Shown here in pieces: positions 3,871 to 48,301 of a stretch of DNA of 64,000 nucleotides. Each line of letters opens with the position of its first letter. Position 1 is the stretch's first letter. This DNA comes from an uncultured Candidatus Saccharibacteria bacterium. Its GTDB lineage: Bacteria; Patescibacteriota; Minisyncoccia; Phycocordibacterales; SBAW01. Under the pieces are notes generated by a model. That model was not told the origin of the DNA and ran no database searches. It saw only the letters and a program-made list of their open reading frames with translations. The stretch spans positions 333,091-397,090 of the forward strand of contig CAZMIU010000001.1 of NCBI GenBank assembly GCA_964566795.1, in the 5' to 3' direction. Made by a program: the position numbers and the translations under genes.

Positions 3871-3889
3871 GCAACATGTTCTGCCTTTT

Positions 3890-4641: not shown

Positions 4642-4642
4642 A

Positions 4643-5329: not shown

Positions 5330-5340
5330 ATGCGCAGGGC

Positions 5341-6566: not shown

Positions 6567-6575
6567 ACCTATAGT

Positions 6576-7453: not shown

Positions 7454-7618
7454 AGGTTAGGTAATGAAAGGTTAATACACCTACTATAACATCATCATTG
7501 CCTGAAGGTCACATGAAATCTATGTACCTCGCTGGCAGGCTTACATCCGCTAGCAAAACGGAGTTTGAACATGTGTTCAAACTCCGTTTTGCAGAGGTCA
7601 GATCTATGTCGGGATGGA

Positions 7619-7855: not shown

Positions 7856-7868
7856 ATGAGGATGCGGG

Positions 7869-9188
<1,320 letters not shown>

Positions 9189-9229
9189 TGCCCAGTACTA
9201 TATCACAATGAAGCCCTAATCGTCAATGG

Positions 9230-10789: not shown

Positions 10790-10829
10790 ATATACAGTAT
10801 AGACGAGAGCGGCAGTATTTCATTACCCG

Positions 10830-11108
10830 TTACTCGTATATGCCGGCCTCTTGGCGCGGGACAAACTCGTACACCGAGCTGTCGTCCTCCTCTATATGCG
10901 AGAACGCGAGGCCCTGCTCCTCAAATATATCGAAGAACTCTCCCCACGTAAGGCGCATTAAGGACTCATCACCCTCGCCCCAGTCAAAGCGCAGTTGCGC
11001 CTCGCTGCCCTCGACAATAGCGGGCATACCTCCGCGCCCCGCCGCCCACCTGCGTATATGCGTATGATCTGTTGTGTACGTTTGCTGCATACCCCACTTG
11101 TATCTCAA
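10830..11108 (-). CDS. Small conserved hypothetical protein.
   Basis: TTDHTHIRRWAAGRGGMPAIVEGS...LRFDWGEGDESL...WGEFFDIFEEQGLAF resembles a small DUF family I cannot name with confidence. Confidence 0.35.
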   Translation of the reverse strand: MRYKWGMQQTYTTDHTHIRRWAAGRGGMPAIVEGSEAQLRFDWGEGDESLMRLTWGEFFDIFEEQGLAFSHIEEDDSSVYEFVPRQEAGIYE

Positions 11109-11183
11109 GCCGGGTGTAGCGCAGATGAAGTCCCGACGCTGCCAGAGGCGGTTGCAGGATCCCGACCGCTTTGCGCGTCGGGA

Positions 11184-11744
11184 CTACCAACCCAGGCCCC
11201 GTGCGGCAAAGCCTATAAGCAGTATGCCGAGCGCGTTCATGGTGTAGGAGATAACAAAAAAATACCGGTTATTGATCTTTGAGAGCCCCAAGAGCGCTAA
11301 GCCCAGCTCGTCCGGCAAGGGCGATGCAATGATAAGCGCGCCCACTATGGGGAGCACGCGCCTAAAGTGCCTATGCTTAAAGATATGCAAAACGCGCATA
11401 ATCCTTGGCCCGCGCAGCATAAACGTGGCATCTCTGGTTATCCTGTCGCGCACAAACAAGAAGATGATGAAGTCGCCGAGCACGGCGCCAAAGGCCCCGA
11501 CCAGGGCCACAGCGTACATGTTGCCCTCCTGCGACAACTCGCCCAAGACCGCAATAGCGGGCGCGGTAGTGACAACCGAGGTAAAGAATGCGCCCGCAAT
11601 AAGGCTCGCCCATAACACGCCGTCGCCCGTGTACTGCAGAGCCGCATGCACCAAGTCGTAGTGCACGATAGCCCACGCCGCCACAAGCGAGAGCAAAATA
11701 ATCAGGCCATCTTCGCGCAGATGCGAACGAGCACGCTTCATCTC
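11184..11744 (-). CDS. Multi-pass membrane protein (hypothetical).
   Basis: Several TM helices. The start is probably the M at MKRARSHL. Confidence 0.4.
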   Translation of the reverse strand, partial: EMKRARSHLREDGLIILLSLVAAWAIVHYDLVHAALQYTGDGVLWASLIAGAFFTSVVTTAPAIAVLGELSQEGNMYAVALVGAFGAVLGDFIIFLFVRDRITRDATFMLRGPRIMRVLHIFKHRHFRRVLPIVGALIIASPLPDELGLALLGLSKINNRYFFVISYTMNALGILLIGFAARGLGW

Positions 11745-19606: not shown

Positions 19607-22216
19607 TTACCGGATATTGAGCTTCTGCATACGTTTCCTCAATGCTTCTTGGCCGCCCTCTAGTATCCTTATGATGTCACTCCTCCTGTCGGAGTTTTCT
19701 ATAGACCCAGTGGCGTAGGCAAAGTCGTACTTCCCGTTCGCCACTCTTTTAATGTCTGAGGCGACAATGTTCTCAGAGTCCGCACATATAACGAGGCTGG
19801 CATTGTGTGTGACGACTATTATCTGCCTTTCCTCTTTTTCCGACTTAACGAAATTGACCAAGTCAGTGGCTACCCCGCCTACATCGAGATCATCTTCAGG
19901 CTGGTCGATAAGGATTGGATATTTTTCGTCGTCAAATCGGAATATGAGCTCAAGCAGGGCTATTGCCTTTTGTCCGCCCGTCATATCCTTAAAGTGCGTT
20001 TCTCCCCCTTTCGTCTTCACTGAGTTAAGGTAGTCGATCTCATATCTGTTCCGGAGAAGCTGCGAGAGCACGGACGATAGATCGCCCGCTTCTACTTTTG
20101 TCCTAATCTTGCCGTCGACAAGTCCGACCACTATTTTCTTTACAGCTTGCTTACTCAACGGCACCGGGGCGTCGCCAAAAAGAGCCTTAATATCCCCGTC
20201 ACCCTTAAGGGCGGGGTCAGAATCCCGAGTGTTTATATTCCTTTCGACAAAAAGTTTGAGTTGGTCGGTATTGTATTTTGCGGATACCTCGATTTTAAGG
20301 AATGAGAACTTTTCGTCGAATTTGATTGTCTTGTAGATAGACTCCTGCTGGGCGTCAAAGTCCGCGTACGAATCTACAAGATCCTCAATGGCCTTATCCC
20401 GTTGCTGTTTCGCCTTCTCAAGCTTCTCGGTAAGGTCTTTAATCTTGTCCTGCAACTCCTGAAGTGAGGAGAGTTCTTTCGTAAGGTCGTCGAGGGCCTT
20501 ACTTTTCTTAATCTTGTCTTCCAGAGCTTTTACGACTTTTCCCTGCTCAGAGATTTCGGCTTCTGCTTCCTTAATCTGCTTGTCGATCCTCCCTATTTCG
20601 TCGGCGATGAGCTTTTTAAGGCTCTCTTTGCTCTTCTTGCTCAATTCCTCCCGGATCAACTCCTGCCGCGCCGCCGAGAGTAAGCTGAATTCCTGATCGG
20701 AAATGAAGATGCTAGCGCCGGTTTTTTGGAGCGACGACAGAATCTCCTTGTCTTGCTTCAGCACATCAACTGCCTTGGTGCCGTTTGATACTGCTTTTTG
20801 GGCTTGCGAATACTTCTGTATTTCTTGGCTGGTAAGCCGGGAATTGCCCGAGCCCTTGTACTTGCCTATCTGCGTGTTCTTCTTTTTTACTTCCTCATCG
20901 ATCTCTTTCTTCGATCCCTGCTTTTTCAGAGCAGCCTCGGTCTCCTTGATCCTGGAATCTGCCGTTATCAGCTTTTCGATAACGCCCTCAATCTTCACCC
21001 TATTCTTCGAGACAAAATTCTCGTAAGCCTGCACCGCGTTCGCAAACCTAGTATTTTTCTTAAGCAGTTTAGTGAGGAACACGTCGCGTTCGCCGGTCTT
21101 TTCGCCATCGTCATATGCCAAAGCGCTCAAGTAGTTCTGTGGGATGTAGAAAATACTTTTAGGGCTTTCCTCGGTGCCGCCGTTCTTCTGTCCATCGCCC
21201 CATACCACTTCGAAGCTGCCCAATGGATAGGGACTGCGCTTTTCTTTATCATTGAATTCTGTAGGATCTATCTTTTGGGCCGTATTCCTCAAAAGGGTCG
21301 ATTTGCCGCTGCCGCGGACACCGATGATCGAGTTGAGGTCTTTATTGAAGTAGACCACCCTTTTATCTCCGGACGATGTCTTGTAAGTTACATGGTCAAT
21401 GACAACCCTGCCGGTCTTAGCCTCGCCCGGATCCCTCTCCTGAATCCGCACCCGGTCTCGTGGCTCGTACAGCGCCTCCTTTAACCCCAGGAAGGTCGTA
21501 TCAGCTTTTATCCATGTAAAGCCGGATCCTATTGTGGATTTTTGATGGGTGTCGGAGCAAAAGAAGACCGGCTTTGGCTCTGCGTCCTTGTAGCGGTCAG
21601 TCTTAAGAAAAAAGTCGGTGTCTTCCTTTTTGCCAAACAACGCATCGGTTTTCTTATCGATTACAACTGCGAGGTTGTTTCCTCGTCCGTCATCCTGCGC
21701 CGACGGCCGGTAGCTGCCGTCGCCGCGCGGACAGGCCACAAGGATATAGTCCTCAAGGTGCTTAATATCCTTATCTTGCTCAAGCGCGGTTTTGAGCGAG
21801 TCAAATGCGATAGAGGTATTTTTTATCTCGGTAGGCGTTAGATCCTTGCAGTACTTGTCATCAATGGTCTTAAGCCTTCCGAGGAATCCTTGGATTTTTG
21901 CCGGAGACACTTGCTCGGAGAAAATGACGTGGATGTGCATCTCCTCGTTATCCTTATTTTGAGGCTGTGTCCTAAACTCAAGATTTGGAAGCACTGTTAT
22001 GCCCTTTGCCTTGAGCATCGCCCCAATATTCTCTAGTTCGTCCTCCGCGAAGTGGAAGTAATTGGTCATGCCGACTACGGCAATATCTTTTGCGACAAGT
22101 TCAGCCACAAACTCGTCGGCGGTGCACCCGTCATATTTATTGGCCAAAAAGGTCTGCGGCGTGTGCACGTGCAAATCCCATTTCCGCCACTCTGTGCCTC
22201 GTTCGTGCTTATTCAT
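19607..22216 (-). CDS. PHP-domain phosphoesterase fused to an SMC/SbcC-like ABC ATPase with a coiled-coil insert (869 aa).
   Basis: N-terminal PHP motif: WDLHVHTPQT, then a metal-ligand His/Asp pattern. Walker A GVRGSGKST. About 350 aa of Lys/Glu coiled coil. ABC signature MTGGQKA, Walker B ILIDQPEDDLD, H-loop VVTHN. It resembles what I believe NCBI labels TrlF-family AAA-like ATPases; that label is unverified. Confidence 0.8.
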   Translation of the reverse strand: MNKHERGTEWRKWDLHVHTPQTFLANKYDGCTADEFVAELVAKDIAVVGMTNYFHFAEDELENIGAMLKAKGITVLPNLEFRTQPQNKDNEEMHIHVIFSEQVSPAKIQGFLGRLKTIDDKYCKDLTPTEIKNTSIAFDSLKTALEQDKDIKHLEDYILVACPRGDGSYRPSAQDDGRGNNLAVVIDKKTDALFGKKEDTDFFLKTDRYKDAEPKPVFFCSDTHQKSTIGSGFTWIKADTTFLGLKEALYEPRDRVRIQERDPGEAKTGRVVIDHVTYKTSSGDKRVVYFNKDLNSIIGVRGSGKSTLLRNTAQKIDPTEFNDKEKRSPYPLGSFEVVWGDGQKNGGTEESPKSIFYIPQNYLSALAYDDGEKTGERDVFLTKLLKKNTRFANAVQAYENFVSKNRVKIEGVIEKLITADSRIKETEAALKKQGSKKEIDEEVKKKNTQIGKYKGSGNSRLTSQEIQKYSQAQKAVSNGTKAVDVLKQDKEILSSLQKTGASIFISDQEFSLLSAARQELIREELSKKSKESLKKLIADEIGRIDKQIKEAEAEISEQGKVVKALEDKIKKSKALDDLTKELSSLQELQDKIKDLTEKLEKAKQQRDKAIEDLVDSYADFDAQQESIYKTIKFDEKFSFLKIEVSAKYNTDQLKLFVERNINTRDSDPALKGDGDIKALFGDAPVPLSKQAVKKIVVGLVDGKIRTKVEAGDLSSVLSQLLRNRYEIDYLNSVKTKGGETHFKDMTGGQKAIALLELIFRFDDEKYPILIDQPEDDLDVGGVATDLVNFVKSEKEERQIIVVTHNASLVICADSENIVASDIKRVANGKYDFAYATGSIENSDRRSDIIRILEGGQEALRKRMQKLNIR

Positions 22217-22554
22217 AAAATTAAGGCCTCAGCCTTACCCGCTACATTACCACTTTTCCCAAGAAAAAACGCCTGTCTCAAAAAAGCGCAAAAGTATGGA
22301 GATAGTTGGAAGTATTTGCAATTGACGACGTGCTTTTTAGGTTTTCGGATACAAAAATTCATCTAAAAATGCTCAAAATGAGCGTTTTTGATTGTAAATT
22401 TTTGCGGTACTGTCGCGCTCGTGCTACAATTGAAATTAATAACGGTAACTGGTCCGATACACGAGACCTAACATAACCGGCACAATCTCCGATCGCGACG
22501 CCGTCGATCACGCGGGACCGCCAACACTATCAGTTCGTTAACAACAGAATAGTT

Positions 22555-23838
22555 ATGGCAAACGTATCTATCAAGTACGTCTCTATCGACGTGCTTAAAC
22601 CCGCGGCGTATAACCCGCGCAAGATCTCGCCAGAGGCCCTGGCGCAGCTCAAAGAGAGTATCGCCAAGTACTCTGTGGTCGACCCGTTAATCGTCAACTC
22701 CGCTCCCAAGCGCAAAAACGTGGTCATTGGGGGCCATATGCGCCTTAGGGCGGCCAAAGAGCTCGGGCACAAGGAGATACCGGTCGTGTATCTCAATATC
22801 CCCGACATCAAGAGGGAGAAAGAGCTCAATCTTCGCCTGCACAAGAACATGGGCGAATTCGACTTCGATCTCCTCAAAAAGCTCGATTTCGACCTCTTGC
22901 TCGATGTAGGGTTCGACAAGGACGCTCTCAACGACATCTGGGCAGAGCAGCTTAAATCGCGCTCCGATGCCTTCGATGTCGATAAGGAGCTCAAGAGCAT
23001 CAAGAAGCCGCAGACGCGGCTGGGCGACCTCATACTCCTCGGCCCGCACAAGCTCTTGTGCGGCGACTCGACCAAGCCCGAGAACTTAGAGCACCTGCTC
23101 GGCGACGAAAAGGCGGCGATGATATTCAGCGATCCCAAGTACAACATCAAGTTGGACTACAACGGCGGGGTCGGCGGCAAGAAGTCCTACGGCGGCAAAG
23201 TCGACGATAACCTATCCGACGAGAAGTACCGCGACTTCCTCAAGGCCAGCATGGAGGCAGCACTCGCGGTCACGCAAGAGGACGCGCATATCCTGTACTG
23301 GTGCGATCAGACCTATATCTGGCTCGTGCAATGCCTCTACCGCGACCTCGGCATTGCCAATAAAAGAGTTTGCATCTGGCTCAAGAATGGCCAGAACCCT
23401 ACCCCGGGCGTAGCCTTCTCCAAGTGCTACGAGCCCTGCGTATATGGCGTGCGCGGCAAGCCGTACCTCAATAAGAAGCTGACTAAGCTCAATGAGGTGC
23501 TCAACGCCGACACGACAACGGGCAACAGCCTGCTAAGCGAATCGCTCGACCACCTGGATGTATGGGCGGTCAATCGCGTGCCCGGCAAGGACATGGAGCA
23601 CGCGACCTCGAAGCCTCCGGCACTGTATGAGAAAGCGATAAGGCGCTGCACAAAGCAGGGAGACATAATCCTGGATTCCTTCTCCGGCTCGGGCAGCACA
23701 CTTATTGCGGGCGAGCAGACAGGCCGCAAGGTCTACGCGGTCGAGCTTGAGCCTATCTTTTGCGACCTCACCATTCGTCGATATGAAGCGCTAACAGGCA
23801 CAAAGGCCAAGATTATCCGCTCCGATGAAGAAGTCTAG
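22555..23838 (+). CDS. ParB-like nuclease domain fused to a beta-class N6/N4 DNA methyltransferase.
   Basis: ParB N-domain: VSIDVLKPAAYNPRK...GGHMRLRAAKELGH. MTase motif IV variant FSDPKYN lies before motif I ILDSFSGSGST, the beta-class order. Fusions of this kind are typical of phage and plasmid orphan MTases. Confidence 0.8.
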   Translation: MANVSIKYVSIDVLKPAAYNPRKISPEALAQLKESIAKYSVVDPLIVNSAPKRKNVVIGGHMRLRAAKELGHKEIPVVYLNIPDIKREKELNLRLHKNMGEFDFDLLKKLDFDLLLDVGFDKDALNDIWAEQLKSRSDAFDVDKELKSIKKPQTRLGDLILLGPHKLLCGDSTKPENLEHLLGDEKAAMIFSDPKYNIKLDYNGGVGGKKSYGGKVDDNLSDEKYRDFLKASMEAALAVTQEDAHILYWCDQTYIWLVQCLYRDLGIANKRVCIWLKNGQNPTPGVAFSKCYEPCVYGVRGKPYLNKKLTKLNEVLNADTTTGNSLLSESLDHLDVWAVNRVPGKDMEHATSKPPALYEKAIRRCTKQGDIILDSFSGSGSTLIAGEQTGRKVYAVELEPIFCDLTIRRYEALTGTKAKIIRSDEEV

Positions 23839-24256
23839 GAGAAATCAGTTCCTGGACCAGCTCTGCACAATTCCTAATGTCTCGCTCGCGTGCGAGAAGA
23901 CAGGGCTATCTAGGAACACCATCTACCGGTGGCGCGGCGAGGACGAGGAGTTCAAGAAGGAAATGGACGCCGCGCTCAAAGCAGGTGTCGAGACCATCAA
24001 CGATTTGGCCGAGAGCAAGCTCATCAGCCACATCAACAACGGCAGCATGAGGGCTATCGAGTATTGGCTTACCAATCACAAGAAAGCTTATGTGCGCCCG
24101 AAGCCCAAGGACTTCTGGGACGATCTCTTGGGCAAGATTCCCGTCACCTCAATCAACATCCTGCCACCCCTGCCCCCTTCCCAGGCGCAGGCGGAGCACT
24201 TGGAGAAGATTCGCAAAGAGCGGGAGGAGGGGCAGCATGGATCAGTTAATCAGTAA
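23825..24256 (+). CDS. Phage terminase small-subunit-like HTH protein.
   Basis: FLDQLCTIPNVSLACEKTGLSRNTIYRWRGEDEEFKKEMDAALKAGVETINDLAESKL is the classic N-terminal HTH of small terminase / phage DNA-binding proteins. Confidence 0.5.
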   Translation: MKKSRRNQFLDQLCTIPNVSLACEKTGLSRNTIYRWRGEDEEFKKEMDAALKAGVETINDLAESKLISHINNGSMRAIEYWLTNHKKAYVRPKPKDFWDDLLGKIPVTSINILPPLPPSQAQAEHLEKIRKEREEGQHGSVNQ

Positions 24257-24270
24257 TCATTAACATAGTT

Positions 24271-24507
24271 ATGAGAAAAGGTGCTAAACCGGCTTCAAAG
24301 CCGACAGTCGAAGAATTAGAAGAGAGAATCCATAGGATCTATCACTTCCTTACTGATTGGGCCAACTCGCCCGATGCAGACGATTGGCTCCGCTACCATG
24401 TCATGGTAGCCGTCAGGATTCTGCATGGCGAGAGTCTTAAGGGGACCTTAATTCAGAACCTTAAGACAGGAGGGATTGAAGTCCTCAGCGACGATCACGA
24501 CCATTAG
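24271..24507 (+). CDS. Hypothetical protein.
   Basis: 78-aa ORF placed in the operon after the TerS-like gene. No known domain. Confidence 0.3.
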   Translation: MRKGAKPASKPTVEELEERIHRIYHFLTDWANSPDADDWLRYHVMVAVRILHGESLKGTLIQNLKTGGIEVLSDDHDH

Positions 24508-28078: not shown

Positions 28079-29962
28079 TTAAGCGTTGTATAGACGTAGG
28101 CCATTAAGGATGACAAGTATCGCAACGCCAGTATCAGCCATGATGGCAACCGGCAACGTAGCAAGACCGAATACAGCCAGCAATATAAATACTGCCTTAG
28201 CTAAAAGAGCAGCTCCTACATTTTGCTGTATTGTGCGAACTGTCCTCCTACTGAGCGAGACAGTTTCTGGAATAGCCTGCAAGTTGTCGTTCATAAGTGC
28301 AATATCGGCAGTCTCAATAGCGACATCTGATCCCTGTGCGCCCATAGCAATACCAACATTTGAGAGCGCGAGTGAGGGAGCGTCGTTTACACCGTCGCCC
28401 ACCATGGCCACTGAGCCGTACTTTTCCTTTAGTTCCCTCACCTTCTCTACCTTCTGTTCAGGAAGGAGAGAAGCATGGGACTCATTTATACCCACTCGCG
28501 CTGAAACCGCACTAGCGGTATGTTCGTTGTCTCCAGTCAACATGACAGAAGTAAGGCCTAAGTCTTTAAGTCGACCAATAACTGACTTCGATTCGTCTCG
28601 CACCTTGTCGGCAATGGCCAATGCTCCCATTACCTGCTTACCCTCGCTGATAAGAACGATGGTCTTGCCCTCACGCTCTAGCGGTTCAGTCTTTTGGAGC
28701 ACCTCTTTGGTCGGTATATCATGCGCATCCATAATCTTCGGGTTGCCTACGCAATGCTCTACATCGTCGCAGACCAGACAAACAGCCTTGCCGCCCTTGC
28801 CCGGGATATTTTCATACCTAGACATATCATGCGGGACGATTCCCTTTTCCTTAGCAAAAGCAAGAATGCTCTTGGAAAGCGGGTGCGAGGAGAACTGCTC
28901 CAGACCTGCGGCATCTTCAAGCACCTGCTTTTCGGTAAAACCCTCGAATGCAATGATGTCTGAGACGTACGGTTCGCCGCGAGTTAAAGTACCCGTCTTA
29001 TCGAACGCGATTGCTTTTACTTTCTTCAGCTCTTCCAGATACTTGCCGCCCTTAATGAGAACCCCTCTGCGCGAGGCTCCCCCAAGCGCGGAAGTAATGG
29101 CTACTGGTGTTGCTATGACCAGGGCACAAGGACATGCAATGACGAGAAGAATAAGGGCGCGGGAAAACCAAAGAAGGAACGGCTCCCCTAGCGCAAGCGG
29201 AGGAACAATTGATATGACAGCTGCAATACCGATCACGGACGGAGTGTAGTACTTGGCGAAACTGTCGATAAACTCCTGTGCCGGTGCCTTAGCCTTTTGC
29301 GCTTGCTCGACAAGCGATACAATCTTAGCAAAAGTAGAATTCTTACTTTCTTTTGTTACCTTGATTTCCAAGTAGCCTTGCTCGTTAAGCGTGCCGCCAA
29401 ACACGGCATCGCCCTCGCGCTTGTCCTTTGGTATGGGCTCCCCAGTGATGGTCGCTTCGTTGACTGCCGATATACCCTTAGTTATAAGGCCATCGAGCGG
29501 TATCATCTCGCCGGGCTTTACTGCAACAACCGTGTCGACTGTGACATCGGCAATTGGCTTAGTACTGCCATCCAGGAGCGTCGCGGTTTGTGGCGACTTA
29601 TGCAACAAAGCTTCGAGCGCCTTGCGCGACCGTCCTACTCCATAATCTTCCAGCGCCTCCGAAAGCGAGAAGAAGAAAACAACTGCTGCGGCTTCGGGAA
29701 GTTGGTTTATAAATATCGCCCCTATTGTCGCAATCACCACGAGAAAGTCGATATTGAGGAAACGTTGTTTAAGGAGCCCCTTAAGAGCGCCTAGCACGAC
29801 GTAGATACCGCCGGTCGCTATGCCGGTGAAGTACAGAGCGGTAAGAATCGCTGGCGAGATGGCGAAGAACGACAGTACGAAGGCCGCACCGGTAAACAAA
29901 CCGGAGATTATAGTGAAAATCTTTTTTAGGTCGAGATTCATATATACGTTTGAGTTAATCAA
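28079..29962 (-). CDS. P1B-type heavy-metal-translocating ATPase with a CPC motif, Zn/Cd/Pb- or Cu-type. It has no N-terminal HMA domain.
   Basis: ACPCALVIATP (TM6 CPC), [19 protein letters not shown]. Confidence 0.85.
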   Translation of the reverse strand: MINSNVYMNLDLKKIFTIISGLFTGAAFVLSFFAISPAILTALYFTGIATGGIYVVLGALKGLLKQRFLNIDFLVVIATIGAIFINQLPEAAAVVFFFSLSEALEDYGVGRSRKALEALLHKSPQTATLLDGSTKPIADVTVDTVVAVKPGEMIPLDGLITKGISAVNEATITGEPIPKDKREGDAVFGGTLNEQGYLEIKVTKESKNSTFAKIVSLVEQAQKAKAPAQEFIDSFAKYYTPSVIGIAAVISIVPPLALGEPFLLWFSRALILLVIACPCALVIATPVAITSALGGASRRGVLIKGGKYLEELKKVKAIAFDKTGTLTRGEPYVSDIIAFEGFTEKQVLEDAAGLEQFSSHPLSKSILAFAKEKGIVPHDMSRYENIPGKGGKAVCLVCDDVEHCVGNPKIMDAHDIPTKEVLQKTEPLEREGKTIVLISEGKQVMGALAIADKVRDESKSVIGRLKDLGLTSVMLTGDNEHTASAVSARVGINESHASLLPEQKVEKVRELKEKYGSVAMVGDGVNDAPSLALSNVGIAMGAQGSDVAIETADIALMNDNLQAIPETVSLSRRTVRTIQQNVGAALLAKAVFILLAVFGLATLPVAIMADTGVAILVILNGLRLYNA

Positions 29963-29978: not shown

Positions 29979-30341
29979 CTAATCACTTTGGGACTGCGCA
30001 GAAACCTCGTCGCCCATAAACATCTCGTCCATAGAAGAGCCGCCGGACATTCCCCCGTGCTGAACATTATTCATAATCCACAACGTACCTCCTACAAGAA
30101 TACAGACGACAAGGAGAGCGAAGGCTAATACCATCAGATTCCATCGTGGCCCTGATTCCTTGCCCACATGCAGGAAGAAGATAAGTTGTGCCGCAAGTTG
30201 TAAGGTCGCAAACACAACCAAAAGTACAATCACAACGGTCGCACTAAGCGCTTGCCCCATAACTAGGTAAAACGCGAGAAGCGTCAGAATGGCTGAGATC
30301 GCGAAGCCTGCGGCGTAAGATTTTACAGTTCCTTTGGTCAT
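29979..30341 (-). CDS. cyoD: Cytochrome bo3 quinol oxidase subunit IV-like.
   Basis: About 120 aa from [27 protein letters not shown]. It has three TM helices and a 4-nt overlap with the subunit III stop. Confidence 0.6.
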   Translation of the reverse strand: MTKGTVKSYAAGFAISAILTLLAFYLVMGQALSATVVIVLLVVFATLQLAAQLIFFLHVGKESGPRWNLMVLAFALLVVCILVGGTLWIMNNVQHGGMSGGSSMDEMFMGDEVSAQSQSD

Positions 30342-30913
30342 GGTATTTGTAGCGCACCTAGTAAATAGACGAAAGTAAAGATAAAAATCCATATAATATC
30401 AAGAAAGTGCCAAAACAAGCTTAGGCACGATAGTTTGCGCAGTGTAGCAGCTGTAAGGCCGCGCACCGCAACATGCACAAGCAGAACAACTATCCATAAC
30501 GATCCGATCAGCACGTGCAATCCGTGTGCACCTACTAGAGCAAAGAATGAAGATAAAGAGGCGCTTTTGTCCGGGCCATATCCCTCCAATATGAGATTTT
30601 TAAATTCGCTTACTTCCATGGCAAGGAAAGCGGCACCTAGAAGGAGGGTTACCGCGAGTGCTGCAATGACCCACTGCTTCTTTTGATTGTGAGCCGCGAC
30701 CATGGCAAGCCCTATCGTAAAACTACTTGTCAAAAGAATCATCGTTTCTATGAGCACAAAAGGCAGACTGAACAGTTCTCCGGGCTCCGGAGTGCCAAAT
30801 GTCGCGCTTCGCAGTACTGCATACGTGGCAAAAAGCCCTGCAAAGAGCACGCAGTCGCTCATGAGGTACACCCAGAAACCGGAAACTACTTTGTCGTCAG
30901 AGTGTTCTTTCAT
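30338..30913 (-). CDS. cyoC: Heme-copper oxidase subunit III (quinol oxidase type).
   Basis: 191 aa, five TM helices. [28 protein letters not shown] and [16 protein letters not shown] are typical of CyoC/CtaE. Confidence 0.75.
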
Positions 30914-32829
30914 GTTATTTTCTCTGCGGGAAGGACATATTCGATCTTGTCGTTAAACGAACGGACAACAAGGCAGGCAAATACTCCGACGATACCGAGA
31001 ACGGCAAGCCACCATATGTGCCAAATCATTGCAAAACCAAAGCAAAGGCTGAGGCCTGCGATGATAAAGCCGACAGAAGTGTTAGCGGGAAGATGGATAT
31101 CCTCGCGGGCGCTGGGTACGCCTTCTCTGGACTCTTTCATTGTCCAAAAAGCATCCTTCCCGCTCACATGCGGAATGCTGGAAAAGTTGTACTCCGGCGG
31201 GGGCGAAGTAGTAGACCATTCAAGCGTTCTCCCGTTCCATGGATCGTTTCCAGCGATATTTTGCTTTCGCTGTCGGACACTTACGACAATCTGGAGAACT
31301 TGGAAAAATACTGCAAGCGCAATGACACACGCTCCAATAGCAGCAACTATCAACAACGGTTGCCAACTTGCGTCTACCTGCGAAAGACGGCGCGTCATTC
31401 CCATGAGCCCCAGTGCATAGAGCGGGATAAAGGCAAGCAAGAATCCGACGATCCAGCTCCAAAACGCGTATCTGCCTAAACGTTCGTTTAGCGTAAAACC
31501 GAACATTTTAGGGAACCAGTAAACAAACCCTGCAAAAAACCCGAAGAGCACACCGCCAATGATCATGTTATGGAAATGCGCGATTACAAACAAACTATTG
31601 TGCAGCTGGAAATTCACTCCTGGTATCGACAAAAGAACGCCTGTCATGCCACCAAGCACGAAAGTCGTCATAAAACCCATAAACCATAGCATCGGAGTCT
31701 TAAAGATAATTCGACCTCGAAACATAGTGAAAAGCCAGTTAAATACTTTTACTCCTGTTGGAATCGCGATGACCATCGTCATAATACCGAAGAAGGCATT
31801 TACATTAGCGTTGGTGCCCATGGTAAAGAAGTGGTGTCCCCACACCATGAATGAGAGTACGCTTATAAGAAGCGTCGCAACGACCATGGAGGTGTACCCG
31901 AACAATCTTTTTTGGGCAAACACGGGTACGATTTCAGAGAATATACCGAATGCTGGCAAAATAAGTATGTAGACTTCCGGATGACCCCATGACCAGATAA
32001 GGTTGACGTACATCATAGCGTTGCCGCCGAGGTCAGTGGTAAAAAAGTGCATGCCAAAAATGCGGTCGAGTGACAGGAGGCCGAGCGTGGCGGTAAGAAT
32101 AGGAAAGGCAAAAATAACCAGAATCATCGACCCGAGCGTGGTCCAGACAAATACCGGCATGCGCATAAGAGTCATTCCGGGTGCACGCATTTTAATAATC
32201 GTGATGAGGAAGTTGATACCTGAAATGAGCGTCCCGGCACCTGCGACTTGCAGTGCCCAGATATAGTAGTCGACGCCAACACCGGGACTGTATTGAAGTT
32301 CTGAGAGCGGCGGATATGCAAGCCAGCCGGTAGCAGCAAATTCTCCTACGACCAGAGAAAGATTGATGAGTATAGCCCCCGCAACCGTGAGCCAAAAGGA
32401 AACCGAGTTAAGAAAAGGGAAAGCTACATCTCGACTGCCAATCTGGAGTGGCAGTATGTAGTTTATGAGGCCGAACATAAATGGCATAGCCACGAAAAAG
32501 ATCATGATTATTCCGTGGGCCGTAAACACTTGGGAATAGTGTTCCGGGGACAAATATCCTGTGTTTTCTCCGGCCGCTAAAGCTTGTTGCGCGCGCATCA
32601 TAAAAGCATCCGTAGCGCCTCTCGCTAGCATGACCGCAGAGAGGAGTAAATACATAATGCCTATCTTTTTGTGATCTACAGACGTAATCCACTCTTTCCA
32701 AAGCCACTTCCAGCGCTTGAAATAGAACAGCAACCCTACCACCGCGACCACACCAAGAATTACAGTAAATTGAGCAACCGTCTCAATCGGTCCGTGTATG
32801 AATGCGTCTAAGGTAATTTTGCCAAACAT
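30910..32829 (-). CDS. cyoB: Heme-copper oxidase subunit I (cytochrome bo3 ubiquinol oxidase subunit I-like).
   Basis: 639 aa. Conserved His ligands in [20 protein letters not shown] and FHNMIIGG, with about 14 TM helices. The size and the C/D-type neighbours favour the quinol oxidase. Confidence 0.85.
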
Positions 32830-32886
32830 AATTTCAATTTTGTGGTGACTCTATATTTCTTCGCCTTGTTCCTGTTACCCACGTAC

Positions 32887-33093
32887 TCATGAGTCAGTAT
32901 GCGCCTCAGGTTCATGATTAGTCGGTATTTCCATCGAATCTATGGTATTTGCAGGTGCCGGCTGAGGTGCCGTGTTCTCCTGCTGATTAACCCCTGACTC
33001 AGGCTGCCAATGCCACCACAGGAAAATCCCCGCCGCTAGCGCCAGCACTATTAGTCCCCCTACTATCACTTTGATGTAAGATTGAAGTTCCAT
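32887..33093 (-). CDS. Small single-TM protein directly upstream of cyoB. It is not a recognisable subunit II.
   Basis: 68 aa. It has one TM helix and a Pro/Gln/Glu-rich tail, with no cupredoxin domain. Confidence 0.3.
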   Translation of the reverse strand: MELQSYIKVIVGGLIVLALAAGIFLWWHWQPESGVNQQENTAPQPAPANTIDSMEIPTNHEPEAHTDS

Positions 33094-33096: not shown

Positions 33097-33948
33097 TTAT
33101 TGTTGTGCAGATAATGTTGCTACTTTGGCTTCGCTCGATTGCGTTAGCTGTTGTTCAAACTCCTTAAGAAGGAAGAGGCTTATGTCGTCCATCGTGTCGT
33201 GACCCTGCCGGAACGGTTTCTCTATGGCGCGAATAAGCTGCCTGATATAGAGAAGCAGGTAGGATATGAACCCCAGGAGCACTACCGACTCGGGCGACCC
33301 TTCAGTCTGGACGAACAAGAGAAGGAACACGATGCCGAGCGCAAGCGATTCAGCCAGTACGTGAGCAGAAGGCAGGAATTGCGTTCTCTGGATGTGGTAG
33401 ACCCTTAGCACGCTTCGGCGCAGAGCCGCTTGTTCTCCCTCAAGACGGACAATGTAATTGGGGGGCATGTCGAGCTTTTCCATCTGAGCATAAGACTCTG
33501 AAAGCTCGTTAACCGACGCGATGCATGGCTCAAGCTTATAATGGTCGCCCTCATGTCCAAGTCCTTTGATAAAACTACGTACGATTGCTACTATCCTCTC
33601 TCGCATCTTTACCAAGTCAAATTCTTTTTTGTCACGGCTAAAGAACTTGCCCTCTTCCCAAATATTCTCAAGCGATGAGCGCATATCGGCTGGTATCTTT
33701 TCAGCCTCCTTGTAGTCAGCGATAATACCCGCAAGTAAGAAGCCGACGATGAATATTGCTCCCGCTATTGCGCTCGAGAACAGCGCATTGAGGGAGAAGA
33801 CCTCTACACCCCATGTATGGATGAGGAACTTCGCCCCCATGATTACAGTGACGATCGCTAGCGTCCATATGCTGATCTTTAGTTTCTTAAGCATGCGGTG
33901 GTCATGGGCACAATACTTAGTAGTTAACGTAGTATTTAACTTTTGCAT
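33097..33948 (-). CDS. Membrane protein (hypothetical) with four TM helices and a central soluble region.
   Basis: Hydrophobic segments sit at the N- and C-termini. No recognised domain. Confidence 0.4.
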   Translation of the reverse strand: MQKLNTTLTTKYCAHDHRMLKKLKISIWTLAIVTVIMGAKFLIHTWGVEVFSLNALFSSAIAGAIFIVGFLLAGIIADYKEAEKIPADMRSSLENIWEEGKFFSRDKKEFDLVKMRERIVAIVRSFIKGLGHEGDHYKLEPCIASVNELSESYAQMEKLDMPPNYIVRLEGEQAALRRSVLRVYHIQRTQFLPSAHVLAESLALGIVFLLLFVQTEGSPESVVLLGFISYLLLYIRQLIRAIEKPFRQGHDTMDDISLFLLKEFEQQLTQSSEAKVATLSAQQ

Positions 33949-35132: not shown

Positions 35133-35804
35133 CTATTGATTTACGGGGGCGGATGTACTGACTTTTGCCTTAATAAGCGCTTTGAACGGCTCATAGCCCT
35201 GCGGGTTCTGTATCTTTTCTCCATTGAGGAAGAAAGTCGGCGTACCGCTGTTGCCGAGCTTTTTACCTGAGTCAATATCGCGCTGCACTCGGGCAGCAAC
35301 CTCTGGCGAAGCGACATCTTGTTTGAACTTCTCCATATCAAGCCCGAGCTGCTTAGCATAGTCCTCAAACACGGCCGGTGTCGAAGTATTCTTCTCTCCC
35401 CATTTCTCCTGTTCGGTAAACAATAGGTCGTGCATTTCTGTGTACTTGTTTTGTCGCGCAGCGGCCTCAACGGCAAGTGCGGCAGTCATGCCATTTTTGT
35501 GTCCGGGAAGTGGAAAATATCGGCGCACTACCCTAAGATCATTCGGGAATTCCTGCTCAAGCTGTTTGACGAGCGGAAAATACGCGCCGCACGCCTCACA
35601 CTCGAAGTCGAGGTACTCGATGAGCGTTGCTTTTGCGCTTGTAGACCCGACCACATAATCATCGACGACAACCGTAAGCAAGTCATTGGGCGGTACCTCT
35701 TTTTTCTGAGACCCGGGGACAACAAGCCACACAAGGCCTATGACTACGACTATCGCTAGGACAATCCACTTCACAAACTTGGTATTTGGTTTAGTTTGAT
35801 CCAT
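35133..35804 (-). CDS. DsbA-family thiol:disulfide oxidoreductase, membrane-anchored.
   Basis: Thioredoxin fold with active site FECEACG, and a cis-Pro region. Confidence 0.75.
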   Translation of the reverse strand: MDQTKPNTKFVKWIVLAIVVVIGLVWLVVPGSQKKEVPPNDLLTVVVDDYVVGSTSAKATLIEYLDFECEACGAYFPLVKQLEQEFPNDLRVVRRYFPLPGHKNGMTAALAVEAAARQNKYTEMHDLLFTEQEKWGEKNTSTPAVFEDYAKQLGLDMEKFKQDVASPEVAARVQRDIDSGKKLGNSGTPTFFLNGEKIQNPQGYEPFKALIKAKVSTSAPVNQ

Positions 35805-35932: not shown

Positions 35933-36650
35933 TTAATTCCCAGCCAGAGCTTTATCAACCAGCTGCTTTACGTTTGCGTACGGCTGAGCGCCAGAGAGCG
36001 GGTACTTCTTTCCGTCCTTGCCCACCACAATGCTCCAGGGCGTGCCTTGACCCCCGGTTGCGGTTGCATTAGCAACCTCGTCTTCAATATGCTTATCGAA
36101 CTTGCCGCTCGTGAGGCATGAATTGAATTTAGCAACATCGAGCCCGACATATTGCGCAATTTTAGGAAGCTCTGCGGCATCGAGTCCGTCATTAGATGGC
36201 GTAACCTCGTATACACGGTCTGCATAGGCCCAAAATTTGTCATTGCCACCTTGGTCGCCTGCACACTCAAGCGCTACTGCCTCATTGCGTGCCTTGGCAT
36301 GGAGCGAATCAAGCGGGAAATGGCGGTATATCCACGCGACTTGCGAACCATACGTGCTCACAACCTGCTTCATGGTGTTATGGAACTGCTTGCAGAAGGG
36401 GCACTCGGTGTCGGAGTACTCGACTACCTTGACCGGAGCGTTTATATCGCCTCGAATATGGTCGCTTGCGGTAACTGCAGTCATTGCCTCCAGATCACCT
36501 GTAGGCTGTGCCGGGACCTGTCCTTGCGGCTGAACAACTGCAGCAGGCCCAGGGAGACGGCTACTGAATAGTATTGCTCCGGCAATGATGATGCCGGTGA
36601 TGATAATGGCAACGGAGGGCGATATTTTATTTTGTAGTGATTCCATGTTT
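35933..36650 (-). CDS. Second DsbA-family thiol:disulfide oxidoreductase.
   Basis: Active site TECPFCKQF. TM anchor from start MESLQNKISPSVAIIITGIIIAG, with the ATG at 36650. Confidence 0.7.
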
Positions 36651-36710: not shown

Positions 36711-37118
36711 TTAGAATGCCCGAGAATTAAGTATGCCCCGAGCGTAGGCTTCTTGGAGCACTGTGCGTGAAGATAGCGGCGGATATGAAAAGGCTCCAAC
36801 TAGAGCAATCGACAGCGGCGAAACAAGGGCTTCTTTTCTAAAAGCTCCTACAAGTACAACCGCGAGAAAAAGGAAAGAAATTAGAAAAAGGACGTCTGCT
36901 GGTGGGAGCGCGACGAACATGCTTTGTATTTCTTGAATATGCTCTATTGGATTTACTTGGCAAAGAGCCGCTGCATGGCTAGGCATAAAGGGACAGTTGC
37001 CCGTCTTCCCTCCCATGGAGCCCATCCCGAAATAGGCAGACCCAAGGGATGGAAGCAAAAGTAGCACCAGTACCGCTAGCAATAGACCGGCTTTTCTCCA
37101 TGGAACGGCGAAGGGCAT
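36711..37118 (-). CDS. Secreted/membrane hypothetical protein with a CxxxxxxxxxC pair.
   Basis: Signal peptide, GNCPFMPSHAAALC, and a C-terminal TM helix. Confidence 0.35.
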   Translation of the reverse strand: MPFAVPWRKAGLLLAVLVLLLLPSLGSAYFGMGSMGGKTGNCPFMPSHAAALCQVNPIEHIQEIQSMFVALPPADVLFLISFLFLAVVLVGAFRKEALVSPLSIALVGAFSYPPLSSRTVLQEAYARGILNSRAF

Positions 37119-38460: not shown

Positions 38461-39246
38461 TTAATGGGACGTCTTGACAGCATGAGACTCACTGCCATGA
38501 GGCTCTTCAATTGCGATTTTTATAAATGCCAACGTAAGAATGGCGAATACGGCCGCCTGCAAAAGGCCGATAAATGCTTCGAATGCCATAAGTGGCACCG
38601 GCAAGAAATACGGCACGAAGAGCGTGACTATCATCAATAAAATCTCCCCGGCGAATATAGCGCCGAAGAGCCGAAACGAAAATGAAATAAGTCGGGCAAA
38701 GTTACCGATAATTTCCAGCAATCCAACCGCAAAGCCTATAAAGCCGTTCGAGAAATTAATGAATTTTGAACCGTATTTCCAGAGCCCCAGTGTAAGTATG
38801 CCGCTTAGTTCGATTACAAGAAATGAAATCATGGCAAGAGCCAGAGTCGTATTGAGGTCCGCATTTACAGGACGAAATAGCGGTGTGAGCGAGCTTTTAC
38901 CCTCACTCACATGTTCAAGACCTATCGTACCGAAAATGGGCAGGAAATTGAAAGTGTTAGCAATGAATATAAAAATAAATATGGTGACTATAAACGGAAA
39001 ATAGCGCAGAGCCAGCTGTCGACTGCCAAGAGTCTGCTCTATCAATCCAAGTACATACTCAAAAAACATTTCTACGGCGCTTTGGATTCTCCCTGGCACG
39101 ACCGACACTTTGCGGCCAATAATAAAAGCTACCAGTAGTATGCCCGCCATGACAATCCATGTAGTAAGGAGCGAATTGGTAACAGGAAAGCCCCAGATAT
39201 CAAAAATCTTCTCCGAGGCAAGGGCGATATGTAATCCTTCTTCCAT
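38461..39246 (-). CDS. atpB: F0F1 ATP synthase subunit a, an orphan copy.
   Basis: Conserved essential Arg in ARLISFSFRLFGAIFAGEILL, and C-terminal EAFIGLLQAAVFAILTLAFI. Five to six TM helices. Confidence 0.7.
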   Translation of the reverse strand: MEEGLHIALASEKIFDIWGFPVTNSLLTTWIVMAGILLVAFIIGRKVSVVPGRIQSAVEMFFEYVLGLIEQTLGSRQLALRYFPFIVTIFIFIFIANTFNFLPIFGTIGLEHVSEGKSSLTPLFRPVNADLNTTLALAMISFLVIELSGILTLGLWKYGSKFINFSNGFIGFAVGLLEIIGNFARLISFSFRLFGAIFAGEILLMIVTLFVPYFLPVPLMAFEAFIGLLQAAVFAILTLAFIKIAIEEPHGSESHAVKTSH

Positions 39247-40606: not shown

Positions 40607-41827
40607 TCAGTGCCCGCCTCCACTTTCTATTTTTCCGTCAAAAATCGTGGGGTCTGCCTCTCCCTCTACGCGCAAAAGTCCCCACGCGCCGCGGTCGAGT
40701 CGGGCAAGCGCATGGTCGACAAGCATATAATTTCCGGGGTAGTCGGCTTTGAACTCAACCACCGCGGCACCGCCGGCGGGAATGAGGGTCGTCTGTATGC
40801 TTCGCGCAGGAGGACTCACAATATCTCCCTCGCGATATACGCGGTCAAATATCTCCCCGATTACATGAAAGCTTGAAATGAGATTGACGCCGCCGTTTCC
40901 TACGTAGAGGCGGACGGTCTCCCCGACTTTGACATTCATGTTGTTCTGCAATGCTCCTGTTTTTCCGTTAAAGACTATGTATTGCGGCTTCCCGTCGAGC
41001 ATCGCTTGTGCGTCAAACAACTGCAGTCCCTTTCGACCCAATTCCCCGGATGTATAAAACTCTCCCTGCATCACGTAAAACTCTTTATCGACCGGAGGCA
41101 ACCCTTCTTTTGGCTCGATGAGAATGAGCCCATAGAGTCCGTGCGCCATATGACTCGGCACATTAGGATGAGCACAATGGTATACGTACAAGCCGGGATT
41201 AAGCGCTTTGAAACGGAATGTTTTTGATTCTCCTGGGGCGACGTTCGTCGCAGGTGCTCCGCCGCCTGGCCCATTAACCGCATGTAAATCAATGTTATGC
41301 ATATGGAGGCTCGTCTTGTCGTTATGAAGCGTCAATTCGACCGTGTCGCCCTCGCGAGCTCTCAAAAACGGCCCCGGCACGGTGCCGTTGAACGTCCAGT
41401 AGTTGAGAGTGACCCCGGGAGCAATTTCAGAGATGACTTCTTTTGTGGTAAGTTCCATTTTGACCGTCTGCGGTTCCGAGCGATTAATTGGCGGTGGAAT
41501 GTCCGCGGGATTTTTTGCTATGTCGGGAACTCGCTCGAAGGAACCGAAATTCCTGAAGAACTGAAGTACATTTTTGAAAGGAAGAACGGGGCCTTCGCTC
41601 GGGCCGAACGTTTTAAGAGAAAAAGGATACTGAAAAGCGTTTGGTATTCCGTTTGGAACGTAAAATGCAAGAGAAACCCCGACAAATATTGCCACAAGCG
41701 CCGCGGTAAGCTTCCACGAATGGAACTGACGGAGCACGAGAAAAATGAAAAGAGCCGCAAAAAAATACGCAATAGCAAGACCGAATGCCTGCACGATGTA
41801 TTGCCAAAGGTAAGAAAGTAGTTCCAT
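40607..41827 (-). CDS. nirK: Copper-containing nitrite reductase (NirK-type two-domain multicopper protein) with N-terminal TM helices.
   Basis: LHNDKTSLHMHNIDLHAVNGPGGG (T2Cu His) and YVYHCAHPNVPSHMAHGLYGLILIEP (T1Cu Cys/His/Met). An N-terminal 60-aa hydrophobic anchor. Confidence 0.8.
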   Translation of the reverse strand: MELLSYLWQYIVQAFGLAIAYFFAALFIFLVLRQFHSWKLTAALVAIFVGVSLAFYVPNGIPNAFQYPFSLKTFGPSEGPVLPFKNVLQFFRNFGSFERVPDIAKNPADIPPPINRSEPQTVKMELTTKEVISEIAPGVTLNYWTFNGTVPGPFLRAREGDTVELTLHNDKTSLHMHNIDLHAVNGPGGGAPATNVAPGESKTFRFKALNPGLYVYHCAHPNVPSHMAHGLYGLILIEPKEGLPPVDKEFYVMQGEFYTSGELGRKGLQLFDAQAMLDGKPQYIVFNGKTGALQNNMNVKVGETVRLYVGNGGVNLISSFHVIGEIFDRVYREGDIVSPPARSIQTTLIPAGGAAVVEFKADYPGNYMLVDHALARLDRGAWGLLRVEGEADPTIFDGKIESGGGH

Positions 41828-42972: not shown

Positions 42973-43007
42973 GGGTATATCTTACACCTTGTCATAGGCA
43001 TTACCGA

Positions 43008-43065
43008 CGCGTCTCGGGCGCGATAACCTAGCACGAGTTGGTTGCGACTCCTGAACGAAGTTCGA
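43008..43065. repeat. Left att-like direct repeat: a 28-bp exact core plus a degenerate copy of the tRNA-Gln 3' end.
   Basis: gcgtctcgggcgcgataacctagcacga at 43008-43035 is identical to 48197-48224. The following 30 bp resemble the tRNA-Gln 3' part. Confidence 0.6.
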
Positions 43066-43119: not shown

Positions 43120-43518
43120 TTAACTGACCTTGATCTGAAAATTATACATCCCCATACCACATACTCCCTGCACCTTATCTCCCGATTTTGGAGTACCTAA
43201 ATCTATTTCCTCCTCACCGGTTGGTTGCAATATCTTCTGAAAACCAACAGAACGGACCACGAGCGACGCTGAGCAATCATATGTACCATCTGTCTTCACA
43301 ATCAATTTGGTAGGTACTCCGCCTTTAATTTCCGTGATGCGCGGAGAATAACCGCCCTTTGCAGTCACAGTCACATACTGCACACCGTCTCTAACCTCGA
43401 CATTCTGTGATTGCGCGACTTCGTCGCCTGAAGACGCCGATCTATCAGAAACAAAGTAGAGAGTACCTCCAATGAGGGCAATACTGAGGATAATGGATAT
43501 GACTGTGTTTTTTTGCAT
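43120..43518 (-). CDS. Membrane-anchored cupredoxin-like (Cupredoxin_1) protein.
   Basis: TM anchor, then a beta-rich domain with YDCSASL and GVCGMGM (Cys/Met copper-site-like). It is a paralogue-like match to the gene at 6953-7453. Confidence 0.5.
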   Translation of the reverse strand: MQKNTVISIILSIALIGGTLYFVSDRSASSGDEVAQSQNVEVRDGVQYVTVTAKGGYSPRITEIKGGVPTKLIVKTDGTYDCSASLVVRSVGFQKILQPTGEEEIDLGTPKSGDKVQGVCGMGMYNFQIKVS

Positions 43519-48136: not shown

Positions 48137-48196
48137 GTCTGAATACTGCTCTCAGCAGGTATGCCTTTTCTGAATAGTGACTCGGAGATTATCTAT

Positions 48197-48226
48197 GCGT
48201 CTCGGGCGCGATAACCTAGCACGACT
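48197..48226. repeat. Right att-like direct repeat abutting the tRNA-Gln 3' end.
   Basis: The 28-bp core is identical to 43008-43035. Confidence 0.6.
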
Positions 48227-48301
48227 TGGCTGCGGGACTAGGACTCGAACCTAGATAACAACATTCAGAGTGTTGCGTCCTACCATTAGACGATCCCGCA
48301 A
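48227..48301 (-). tRNA. tRNA-Gln(CTG).
   Basis: Hand-folded: acceptor TGCGGGA/TCCCGCA; anticodon stem CAACA/TGTTG with loop CTCTGAA (anticodon CUG); T-arm CTAGG-TTCGAGT-CCTAG. The discriminator and CCA are encoded. Confidence 0.85.

Follow-up and report, generated by a model that had tools for sequence, protein, structure and literature searches.

The cyo genes of the window

The stretch of DNA analysed here, called the window throughout, comprises 64,000 nucleotides (64 kb) of contig CAZMIU010000001.1 (positions 333,091 to 397,090; assembly GCA_964566795.1) from an uncultured Candidatus Saccharibacteria bacterium. It carries the genes cyoB, cyoC and cyoD, which code for subunits I, III and IV of a heme-copper quinol oxidase (Table 1). 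The three products were found to exceed the curated NCBIfam equivalog cutoffs, as CyoB scored 1062.3 bits against TIGR02843 (cutoff 1020.35, residues 2-638 covered), CyoC 249 bits against TIGR02842 (cutoff 224) and CyoD 97 bits against TIGR02847 (cutoff 81); CyoB also matched Pfam COX1 with an E-value of 1.7e-150. Using the E. coli K-12 CyoABCDE proteins of the RefSeq record as tblastn queries against all six frames of the window, we observed identities of 63% for CyoB, 52% for CyoC and 37% for CyoD. The genes abut or overlap, with those for subunits III and IV placed after that for subunit I and an overlap of 4 nt between the stop of cyoB and cyoC, so that the description of three clearly present and tightly packed subunits in an earlier note on this DNA is upheld. 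For cyoD, the call of 120 amino acids (aa) was taken from identical contigs, the longest open reading frame (ORF) extending to 30392. The three are bona fide intact genes.

The same note had reported that the operon lacks cyoA, the gene for subunit II, and cyoE, the gene for heme O synthase. The tblastn searches confirmed this across the whole 64 kb, beyond the operon itself. The place upstream of cyoB is held, as had been noted, by a 68-aa ORF with a single transmembrane (TM) helix and no COX2-type domain in Pfam: the models COX2, COX2_TM and COX_ARM matched neither this ORF nor the 265-aa protein encoded next to it (283 aa from an earlier start), and a CyoA profile built from 80 loci matched neither of them either. 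A CyoA homologue from the same Sequence Read Archive series, P0254, was considered as the possible cyoA product of the window's genome and was set aside, as it comes from another assembly and from a contig of about 50% GC, and probably belongs to a different organism.

Compared with the bo3 oxidase operon of E. coli, cyoABCDE, the window shows the same gene order, overlapping stops and the same catalytic, channel and quinol-site residues, and subunits I, III and IV are orthologous. It differs in having no cyoA upstream and no cyoE downstream, and in that its genes form part of a long co-directional cluster on an island, together with dsbA-dsbA-dsbB, a bestrophin-like gene, the 68-aa ORF and a gene for a ZntA-like ATPase.

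A clade of loci without cyoA

The best 120 database relatives of the window's CyoB were 70-100% identical to it, and those carrying a name were assigned to Parcubacteria, Paceibacterota, Adlerbacteria, Kaiserbacteria or Patescibacteria. These names, along with the matches of the genes next to it, point to a tiny-genome bacterium of the Paceibacteria type within the Candidate Phyla Radiation as the source of the window. A neighbour-joining tree built from the best 60 CyoBs placed the window protein (P0001/P0002) with P0003 (90% identity), P0004 (81%) and P0012 (77%); the next-nearest proteins, P0005 (80%), P0006 (80%) and P0008 (79%), are encoded by canonical cyoABCDE loci. The layout without cyoA recurs across different samples, in six or more independent assemblies that represent four lineages. 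Loci L090 and L091 (about 100% identical) and L083 (90%) share with the window the order dsbA-dsbA-dsbB, further on the bestrophin-like gene, the small ORF and cyoB-cyoC-cyoD, and then the genes for the ZntA-like ATPase and a PAP2 protein, with a 69-aa ORF and a sortase gene intervening between cyoD and the ATPase gene in L083. The order in L087 is dsbA-dsbA-dsbB, a gene of the CDF cation-efflux family, the small ORF, cyoB-cyoC-cyoD, an ATPase gene and a serine recombinase gene. In L088/L089, dsbA is followed by cyoB and then by rbfA on the opposite strand, and cyoC and cyoD are lacking. No COX2 or UbiA genes were detected at L083, L087, L088/L089, L090 or L091.

The lone cyoB of the last lineage (positions 947-2872 of L088 and 213-2138 of L089) is intact, is 81% identical to that of the window and keeps all the key residues. 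It stands without cyoA, cyoC, cyoD, cyoE or the small ORF, on contigs of only 2.5-3.3 kb. Two short contigs from Hainich groundwater repeat the window's layout in near-identical form; a metagenome scan with an alignment of the small ORF returned nothing beyond these two contigs, and a scan of viral contigs with CyoB returned a single distant locus (61%).

For comparison, cyoA lies directly upstream of cyoB in 80 of 80 related loci from GTDB genomes, these being species representatives with 59-70% identity, 11 of them from the Candidate Phyla Radiation (CPR) and the remainder mostly from Proteobacteria. All the canonical relatives (19 CPR loci and about 70 others) possess cyoA, and cyoE was found downstream in every canonical CPR locus of sufficient length. 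Since cyoA is present in each of the 80 related loci and the layout without it recurs in independent assemblies, its absence from the window is not due to chance or to an assembly error. The cyoA-less state is a derived character of this clade and not an accident.

Integrity of the oxidase genes

Global alignment of the window's CyoB to that of E. coli showed that H106 and H421, which bind heme b, H419, which binds heme o3, and H284, H333 and H334, which bind CuB, are all conserved, as is the cross-linked tyrosine Y288. Conservation also extended to D135, E286, N124 and N142 of the D-channel, to T359 and K362 of the K-channel, and to R481 and R482. Residues R71, D75, H98 and Q101, which on the basis of the E. 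coli bo3 structures we take to form the high-affinity quinol site in subunit I, correspond to R70, D74, H97 and Q100 of the window protein. The statement that subunit II is required for quinol oxidation was therefore too strong, as these four residues sit in subunit I and are present here. In all five cyoA-less clade members, 17 of 17 key catalytic, channel and quinol-site residues are kept.

Comparison of the window with L083 gave a nonsynonymous substitution rate (dN) of 0.054, a synonymous rate (dS) of 2.0 and a dN/dS ratio of 0.027 for cyoB; the corresponding values were 0.077, 1.33 and 0.057 for cyoC and 0.160, 1.17 and 0.137 for cyoD. The closer pair of window and L090 gave, for cyoB, a dN of 0.002, a dS of 0.076 and the same ratio of 0.027. 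The CyoBs of the clade are 61-66% identical to that of E. coli, the same level as in 115 other CyoBs of the CPR type, whose mean is 62%, and only four clade-specific changes were found at sites at least 90% conserved elsewhere (in E. coli numbering, A340T, D407N, L416V and V417I). Three of these changes, D407N, L416V and V417I, form a group on the periplasmic side that shortly precedes H419, the ligand of heme o3.

Loss of catalytic ligands, which the earlier note had named as a possible sign of a pseudogene, was not observed: the CuB and heme ligands and the proton-channel residues are all conserved. The cyoB gene is not a pseudogene, and the absence of cyoA from beside cyoBCD is not decay. 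Ever since they lost cyoA as a neighbour, the three genes have clearly been kept by purifying selection. The locus could still be read as a non-functional remnant, either a truncated operon fragment heading for loss or an assembly artefact, given that it lacks two of the five canonical genes and that one lineage is also without cyoC and cyoD. This is contradicted by the dN/dS values of 0.03-0.14 in all three genes, with dS saturated between lineages, by the lack of stops or frameshifts in cyoBCD, by the 17 functional residues retained throughout the five clade members and by the recurrence of the layout across six or more assemblies made independently from different samples, and we regard it as highly improbable. 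Of the two halves of the earlier suggestion of a degenerate or partial acquisition, only the second survives: the genes form a partial copy located on a mobile island, and this copy is not degenerate, having intact residues, a dN/dS of 0.027 and a divergence from E. coli like that of canonical CPR proteins.

A canonical operon in a close relative

Locus L083 lies on NODE_47 of ERZ534009 (109,772 bp), and a search that took the CyoA of the closest canonical relative as query showed that a CyoA homologue, P0249, is encoded on the same contig. Locus L092 (record positions 1-11398) comprises cyoA, cyoB, cyoC, cyoD and a UbiA-family cyoE, followed by an atp operon; the island cyoB is found at about 22,400 of the same record, such that the canonical operon is some 18 kb away. 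The GC content of the canonical operon is host-like at 56.8% and that of the island cyoBCD is 48.7%. As the two CyoBs of this relative are only about 73-80% identical to each other, the island copy is no recent local duplicate. The genome of at least one island carrier thus codes for subunit II and heme O synthase at another site. Among the options listed in the earlier note, we favour the one by which subunit II is encoded elsewhere; it holds for the contig of this relative, and for the window's own genome we infer a canonical operon of the same kind.

In the canonical cyoB of the relative, an A9 run (L092, about 2317-2331) contains one A too many, which splits the gene and leaves a called product of 322 aa. 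Deletion of the extra A restores a 636-aa ORF with all motifs, and the native cyoC and cyoD are intact. At a coverage of about 6x, this frameshift may have been introduced in assembly, or else the gene may have been inactivated very recently. Were the frameshift genuine, the broken gene could mean that the island cyoBCD has taken over from a native cyoBCD that is now decaying, with the native cyoA and cyoE retained. A perfect ORF results from the removal of a single A with no further sign of decay, however, the native cyoC and cyoD show no damage, and a homopolymer assembly error is equally likely at this coverage. We consider such a replacement to be quite improbable.

Linkage to DsbA and DsbB

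In each of the four lineages without cyoA, homologues of the island's DsbA/DsbB are encoded upstream of cyoB at a distance of no more than about 3.5 kb, and DsbB was found wherever a cyoA-less contig reaches far enough. Neither was found near cyoB in any of the 19 canonical CPR loci or in any of 73 other loci. The DsbB of the island keeps the CxxC motif with the following arginine (C-E-L-C-W-W-Q-R) and the second cysteine pair. Bader and co-workers reportedly found in 1999 that E. coli DsbB hands electrons to quinone and that terminal oxidases re-oxidise the quinol. Taken together with this pathway, the linkage suggests that the oxidase core would serve as an electron sink for the island's own disulfide-forming machinery. 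The components of the E. coli DsbA-DsbB-quinone-oxidase pathway are shared with the island; they are physically linked here and unlinked in E. coli, and no quinone biosynthesis is evident here.

The dsbA-dsbA-dsbB cluster is headed by a gene at 36711-37118 (minus strand) for a 135-aa membrane protein without a family match. The protein is conserved in L083 (41% identity), L087 (31%) and L090/L091 (99%).

The two proteins encoded upstream of cyoB

The 68-aa ORF is also present upstream of cyoB in L083 (46% identity), L087 (36%, frameshifted), L090, L091, L093 and L094; it does not precede the lone cyoB of L088. Its product ends in the motif (I/V)PTNH(E/D)PxxHTD, in which PTNH-P--HTD is invariant. 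Across the roughly 100 loci compared, PTNHxPxxHTD is confined to those without cyoA and occurs in no canonical locus, and only two true relatives of the ORF were found among 1.84 billion representative proteins. No homology was found to the CyoA profile or to the TM region of subunit II (-3 to +1.5 bits), and the idea that the ORF is a relic of the CyoA N-terminus gained no support from the profile comparison. Its product may act as a small accessory subunit, or else in assembly as a metal-binding factor.

For the 265-aa protein, an AlphaFold2 model (predicted local distance difference test score of 90) was searched with Foldseek, and the top match was a Klebsiella bestrophin (4wd7/6iv0) with a probability of 1.00 and a TM-score of 0.75 over about 264 of 265 residues. 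The protein itself gave no match to Pfam Bestrophin-like (PF14023), and a 44%-identical relative, P0225, scored 28.3 bits, below the cutoff of 32. On the strength of the modelled fold we assign it as a predicted bestrophin-type channel; it has 215 relatives across CPR, DPANN and Proteobacteria. As a substitute for CyoA it was rejected, given its bestrophin fold, its membership of a widespread family unrelated to oxidases, the lack of a match to the CyoA profile and its absence from L087 and L088. The proposal that a non-canonical partner replaces subunit II accordingly fails for the 283-aa form of this protein; for the 68-aa ORF it stands to the extent that the ORF is conserved and specific to cyoA-less loci, yet the ORF is without homology to CyoA.

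These features bear on an alternative in which the island encodes an autonomous minimal oxidase without subunit II, the 68-aa protein acting as a small replacement subunit or as a CuB or assembly factor, and the enzyme re-oxidising the quinol of the neighbouring DsbB. Such an oxidase would account for a small ORF that is packed upstream of cyoB and is conserved, in cyoA-less loci only, across lineages whose CyoBs are just 77% identical. It would also fit with the location of all the quinol-site residues within CyoB, with the clade-specific changes D407N, L416V and V417I in the region of loop IX-X and helix X, close to the heme o3 ligand at the periplasmic face, with the strict DsbA/DsbB linkage and with the existence of a cyoB-only locus (L088). 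In role, the 68-aa protein would then resemble subunit IIa of the Thermus ba3 oxidase and other small oxidase subunits with a single TM helix; it too is a single-TM protein, with its gene beside that for subunit I, and has no similarity to the TM helices of subunit II. The Thermus ba3 oxidase still has a full subunit II.

Several observations argue in the other direction. The closest relative on a long contig has cyoA and cyoE nearby, the 68-aa ORF reaches only about 1 bit against CyoA and is absent in L088 and frameshifted in L087, and CyoB shows neither acceleration nor remodelling. In E. coli, cyoE mutants have no activity. An oxidase deprived of heme O synthase would have to place another heme in the high-spin site, and flexibility in heme use has been noted (PMC9145763). 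We judge an autonomous oxidase to be unlikely. In a more far-reaching form, the island clade would have dispensed with subunit II altogether, CyoB (with CyoC and CyoD in most lineages and alone in one) being a minimal quinol:O2 oxidoreductase helped by the 68-aa protein with its His/Asp-rich periplasmic tail. This unit would be wired to DsbB as a transferable and self-contained module for disulfide formation and electron disposal in CPR bacteria without a respiratory chain. We hold this version to be decidedly unlikely.

The mobile island

The oxidase genes lie in a low-GC region (Table 1) with a GC content of 47.4%, against 56.6% and 56.2% in the flanks. A 47-nt direct repeat, of which none would be expected by chance, overlaps the 3' end of the tRNA-Gln gene at the right end of this region. 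The presence of the repeat at 43000 and 48188, together with the tRNA-Gln gene, indicates tandem insertions, or accretion of the island at one tRNA. These attachment site-like repeats bracket a 5.1-kb copper module (43.0-48.2 kb) coding for a TM-cupredoxin-like protein, an HMA-DsbD_2 protein, a 73-aa ORF, a DUF305 protein, CopA and CsoR; no integrase gene was found inside this segment. The 132-aa membrane-anchored cupredoxin-like protein of the module (43120-43518) was considered as a substitute for subunit II and rejected, as it scored -2.6 bits against the CyoA profile and belongs to a separate copper-resistance module.

Table 1 Features of the window (positions counted from its first nucleotide)
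Feature	Position	Strand	Basis or remark
Low-GC mobile region	24500-48234, perhaps starting nearer 19.6 kb		Composition; right end at tRNA-Gln
Large serine recombinase, 439 aa	26115-27434	+	Pfam Resolvase, Recombinase, Zn_ribbon_recom
PAP2_C-domain membrane protein, 216 aa	27428-28078	-	Pfam PAP2_C, 27.2 bits (cutoff 27)
ZntA-like P1B-type heavy-metal ATPase	28079-29941	-	Directly downstream of cyoD; TIGR01525 595 bits, TIGR01512 528 bits
cyoD, subunit IV, 120 aa as called	29979-30341	-	TIGR02847, Pfam COX4_pro
cyoC, subunit III, 191 aa	30338-30913	-	TIGR02842, Pfam COX3
cyoB, heme-copper quinol oxidase subunit I, 639 aa	30910-32829	-	TIGR02843, Pfam COX1
68-aa single-TM ORF	32887-33093	-	Starts 3 nt past the stop of the bestrophin gene, ends 57 nt before cyoB
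Bestrophin-fold membrane protein, 265 aa (283 aa from start at 33948)	33097-33894	-	AlphaFold2 and Foldseek (predicted)
SurA_N-like periplasmic chaperone domain protein, 206 aa	33917-34537	-	Pfam SurA_N_3, E = 1.7e-8
DsbB, 189 aa	34560-35129	-	Pfam DsbB PF02600, 36.6 bits (cutoff 22.1), E = 7.5e-9
Two DsbA-like thioredoxin-fold oxidoreductases	35133-35804 and 35933-36646	-	Pfam Thioredoxin_4, DSBA
Lone atpB paralogue (ATP synthase a-subunit)	38461-39246	-	Pfam ATP-synt_A, E = 6.9e-39
Direct repeat, 47 nt	43000-43046 and 48188-48234		89% identity, 28-nt exact core
tRNA-Gln	48227-48300	-	

The ZntA-like ATPase gene follows cyoD in the window as well as in L087, L090 and L091. Its product was examined as a copper pump for CuB and rejected in this role, as its best models are of the ZntA/Cd type and it carries a C-terminal 'ADTG' motif. 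The same serine recombinase gene that is present in the window follows the cyo cluster in L087. The lone atpB has the arginine of the RLFGN-type motif, is 65-67% identical to the native atpB of Paceibacteria atp operons and is accompanied by no other atp gene in the window. Copies of atpB are also found in L083, L090 and L091, at 70-72% identity and on the opposite strand, although the neighbouring genes of L090 and L091 are 97-100% identical to those of the window. The cyo-bearing segment further carries genes for a multicopper oxidase, a sortase, a LysM-M23 peptidase and a ParB-methyltransferase with a neighbouring ATPase.

The multicopper oxidase (40607-41827, minus strand) has two domains, and at the same position L090 (1474-2379) and L091 have a CDF cation-efflux gene. 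This swap of cargo between near-identical islands, those of the window and of L090/L091, shows a mosaic structure. The insertion contexts also differ, the cargo of L083 lying between an atp operon and ychF with a tyrosine integrase, that of the window lying at tRNA-Gln with a serine recombinase, and the flanks of the L090/L091 island differing from both. As the same cargo occurs in differing contexts with different integrases, it is shared among different elements and insertion sites. Genomic islands are frequent in Patescibacteria, with transfer mostly within the phylum (PMC12455944), and expressed ccrB-like serine recombinases have been reported from Paceibacteria (PMC9938205).

The left low-GC part, at 19607-24507, codes for an 869-aa protein with faint SMC_N/AAA_21 matches and a PHP-like 'HVHTP' start. 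It also holds a ParB_N-N6_N4 methyltransferase fusion at 22555-23838 with small HTH-like ORFs nearby, in a patchy GC context of 45-57%. These are probably defence or mobile-element genes. At the other end, a contig of the core genome (L099, Logan SRR14271372_170908; FtsX, CTP synthase and a 116-aa ORF) stops at the junction of the island with tRNA-Gln, and the sample from which it derives also holds an identical copy of the island. The end of this contig is consistent with heterogeneity in the presence of the island or with an assembly break induced by the repeat.

Proposed role of the partial operon

We consider it on balance probable that cyoBCD is a functional, partial second copy on a mobile island, which uses the CyoA and CyoE of its host in trans. 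A mobile element would have captured the cyoBCD fragment of a Paceibacteria cyo operon, and the resulting island would circulate among Paceibacteria that already own a canonical cyoABCDE. With hosts so equipped, the island need not carry subunit II or heme O synthase: the CyoA of the host would complete its I-III-IV core, and heme O would be supplied by the host's CyoE. According to work attributed to Stenberg, von Heijne and Daley in 2007, E. coli bo3 is said to pass through a I-III-IV assembly intermediate that subunit II joins last. This intermediate has the same subunit set as is encoded here; in E. coli it is transient and derives from one operon, not from a separate gene set. Since subunit II is reported to be the last to join in E. 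coli, late addition of a separately encoded CyoA is plausible. The lone atpB is a second plug-in core subunit that is unable to work alone, and its product would likewise plug into the ATP synthase of the host. Within the island the oxidase core appears always to travel with DsbA-DsbA-DsbB and metal-efflux genes, and its most likely role would be to provide extra or alternative quinol-oxidising capacity. Such capacity may sustain DsbB-driven disulfide formation and the removal of O2 under oxidative or metal stress.

A number of observations weigh against this proposal. Neither of the two genes needed from the host was found in the window, the best tblastn matches having E-values of 0.057 for E. 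coli CyoA and 1.6 for E. coli CyoE. No quinone or heme biosynthesis genes were seen, and CPR genomes have been reported to be without quinone synthesis (PMC8407418). The frameshift in the canonical cyoB of the relative, if real, would mean that the island copy replaces the native core and does not supplement it. The lineage in which cyoB stands alone (L088/L089) is harder to fit with simple complementation in trans, and the conservation of a 68-aa ORF restricted to cyoA-less loci hints at a dedicated partner.

Relation to known systems and significance

The presence of a terminal oxidase in a CPR host, which the earlier note had thought unusual in itself, is not so: cyo operons have been documented in Saccharibacteria, Parcubacteria and Doudnabacteria (PMC8407418, PMC7507113, PMC9938205). 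They have the E. coli gene order and were horizontally acquired (PMC8407418, PMC7507113), and are usually read as serving O2 detoxification (PMC9938205). The genes of the window share with the CPR cyoABCDE operons the same CyoB lineage, the window protein being 70-81% identical to those of Paceibacteria, Adlerbacteria and Kaiserbacteria, and the same type of host. They differ from them in that the published operons include cyoA and cyoE (PMC8407418; the loci compared here agree), whereas the clade of the window is without both and is island-borne. The encoded proteins are ordinary members of known families, and both cyo operons and genomic islands were already known from CPR bacteria. What is new is an island-borne clade under selection that has only cyoBCD and shows consistent linkage to DsbAB and to a small ORF specific to the lineage.

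CPR/Patescibacteria are thought to be ancestrally non-respiring and to have gained cyo operons by transfer. Within Paceibacteria, the catalytic core of subunits I, III and IV has been mobilised again without subunit II and heme O synthase, under strong purifying selection, and its companions are consistently DsbA/DsbB, metal exporters and a spare a-subunit of ATP synthase. Should the core indeed be complemented in trans, genomic islands can carry plug-in core subunits for the membrane complexes of their hosts; should it function without subunit II, it would represent a new minimal architecture for A-family oxidases. The purpose of such an oxidase may be to act as an electron sink for oxidative protein folding and for tolerance of O2 and metal stress, rather than to conserve energy.

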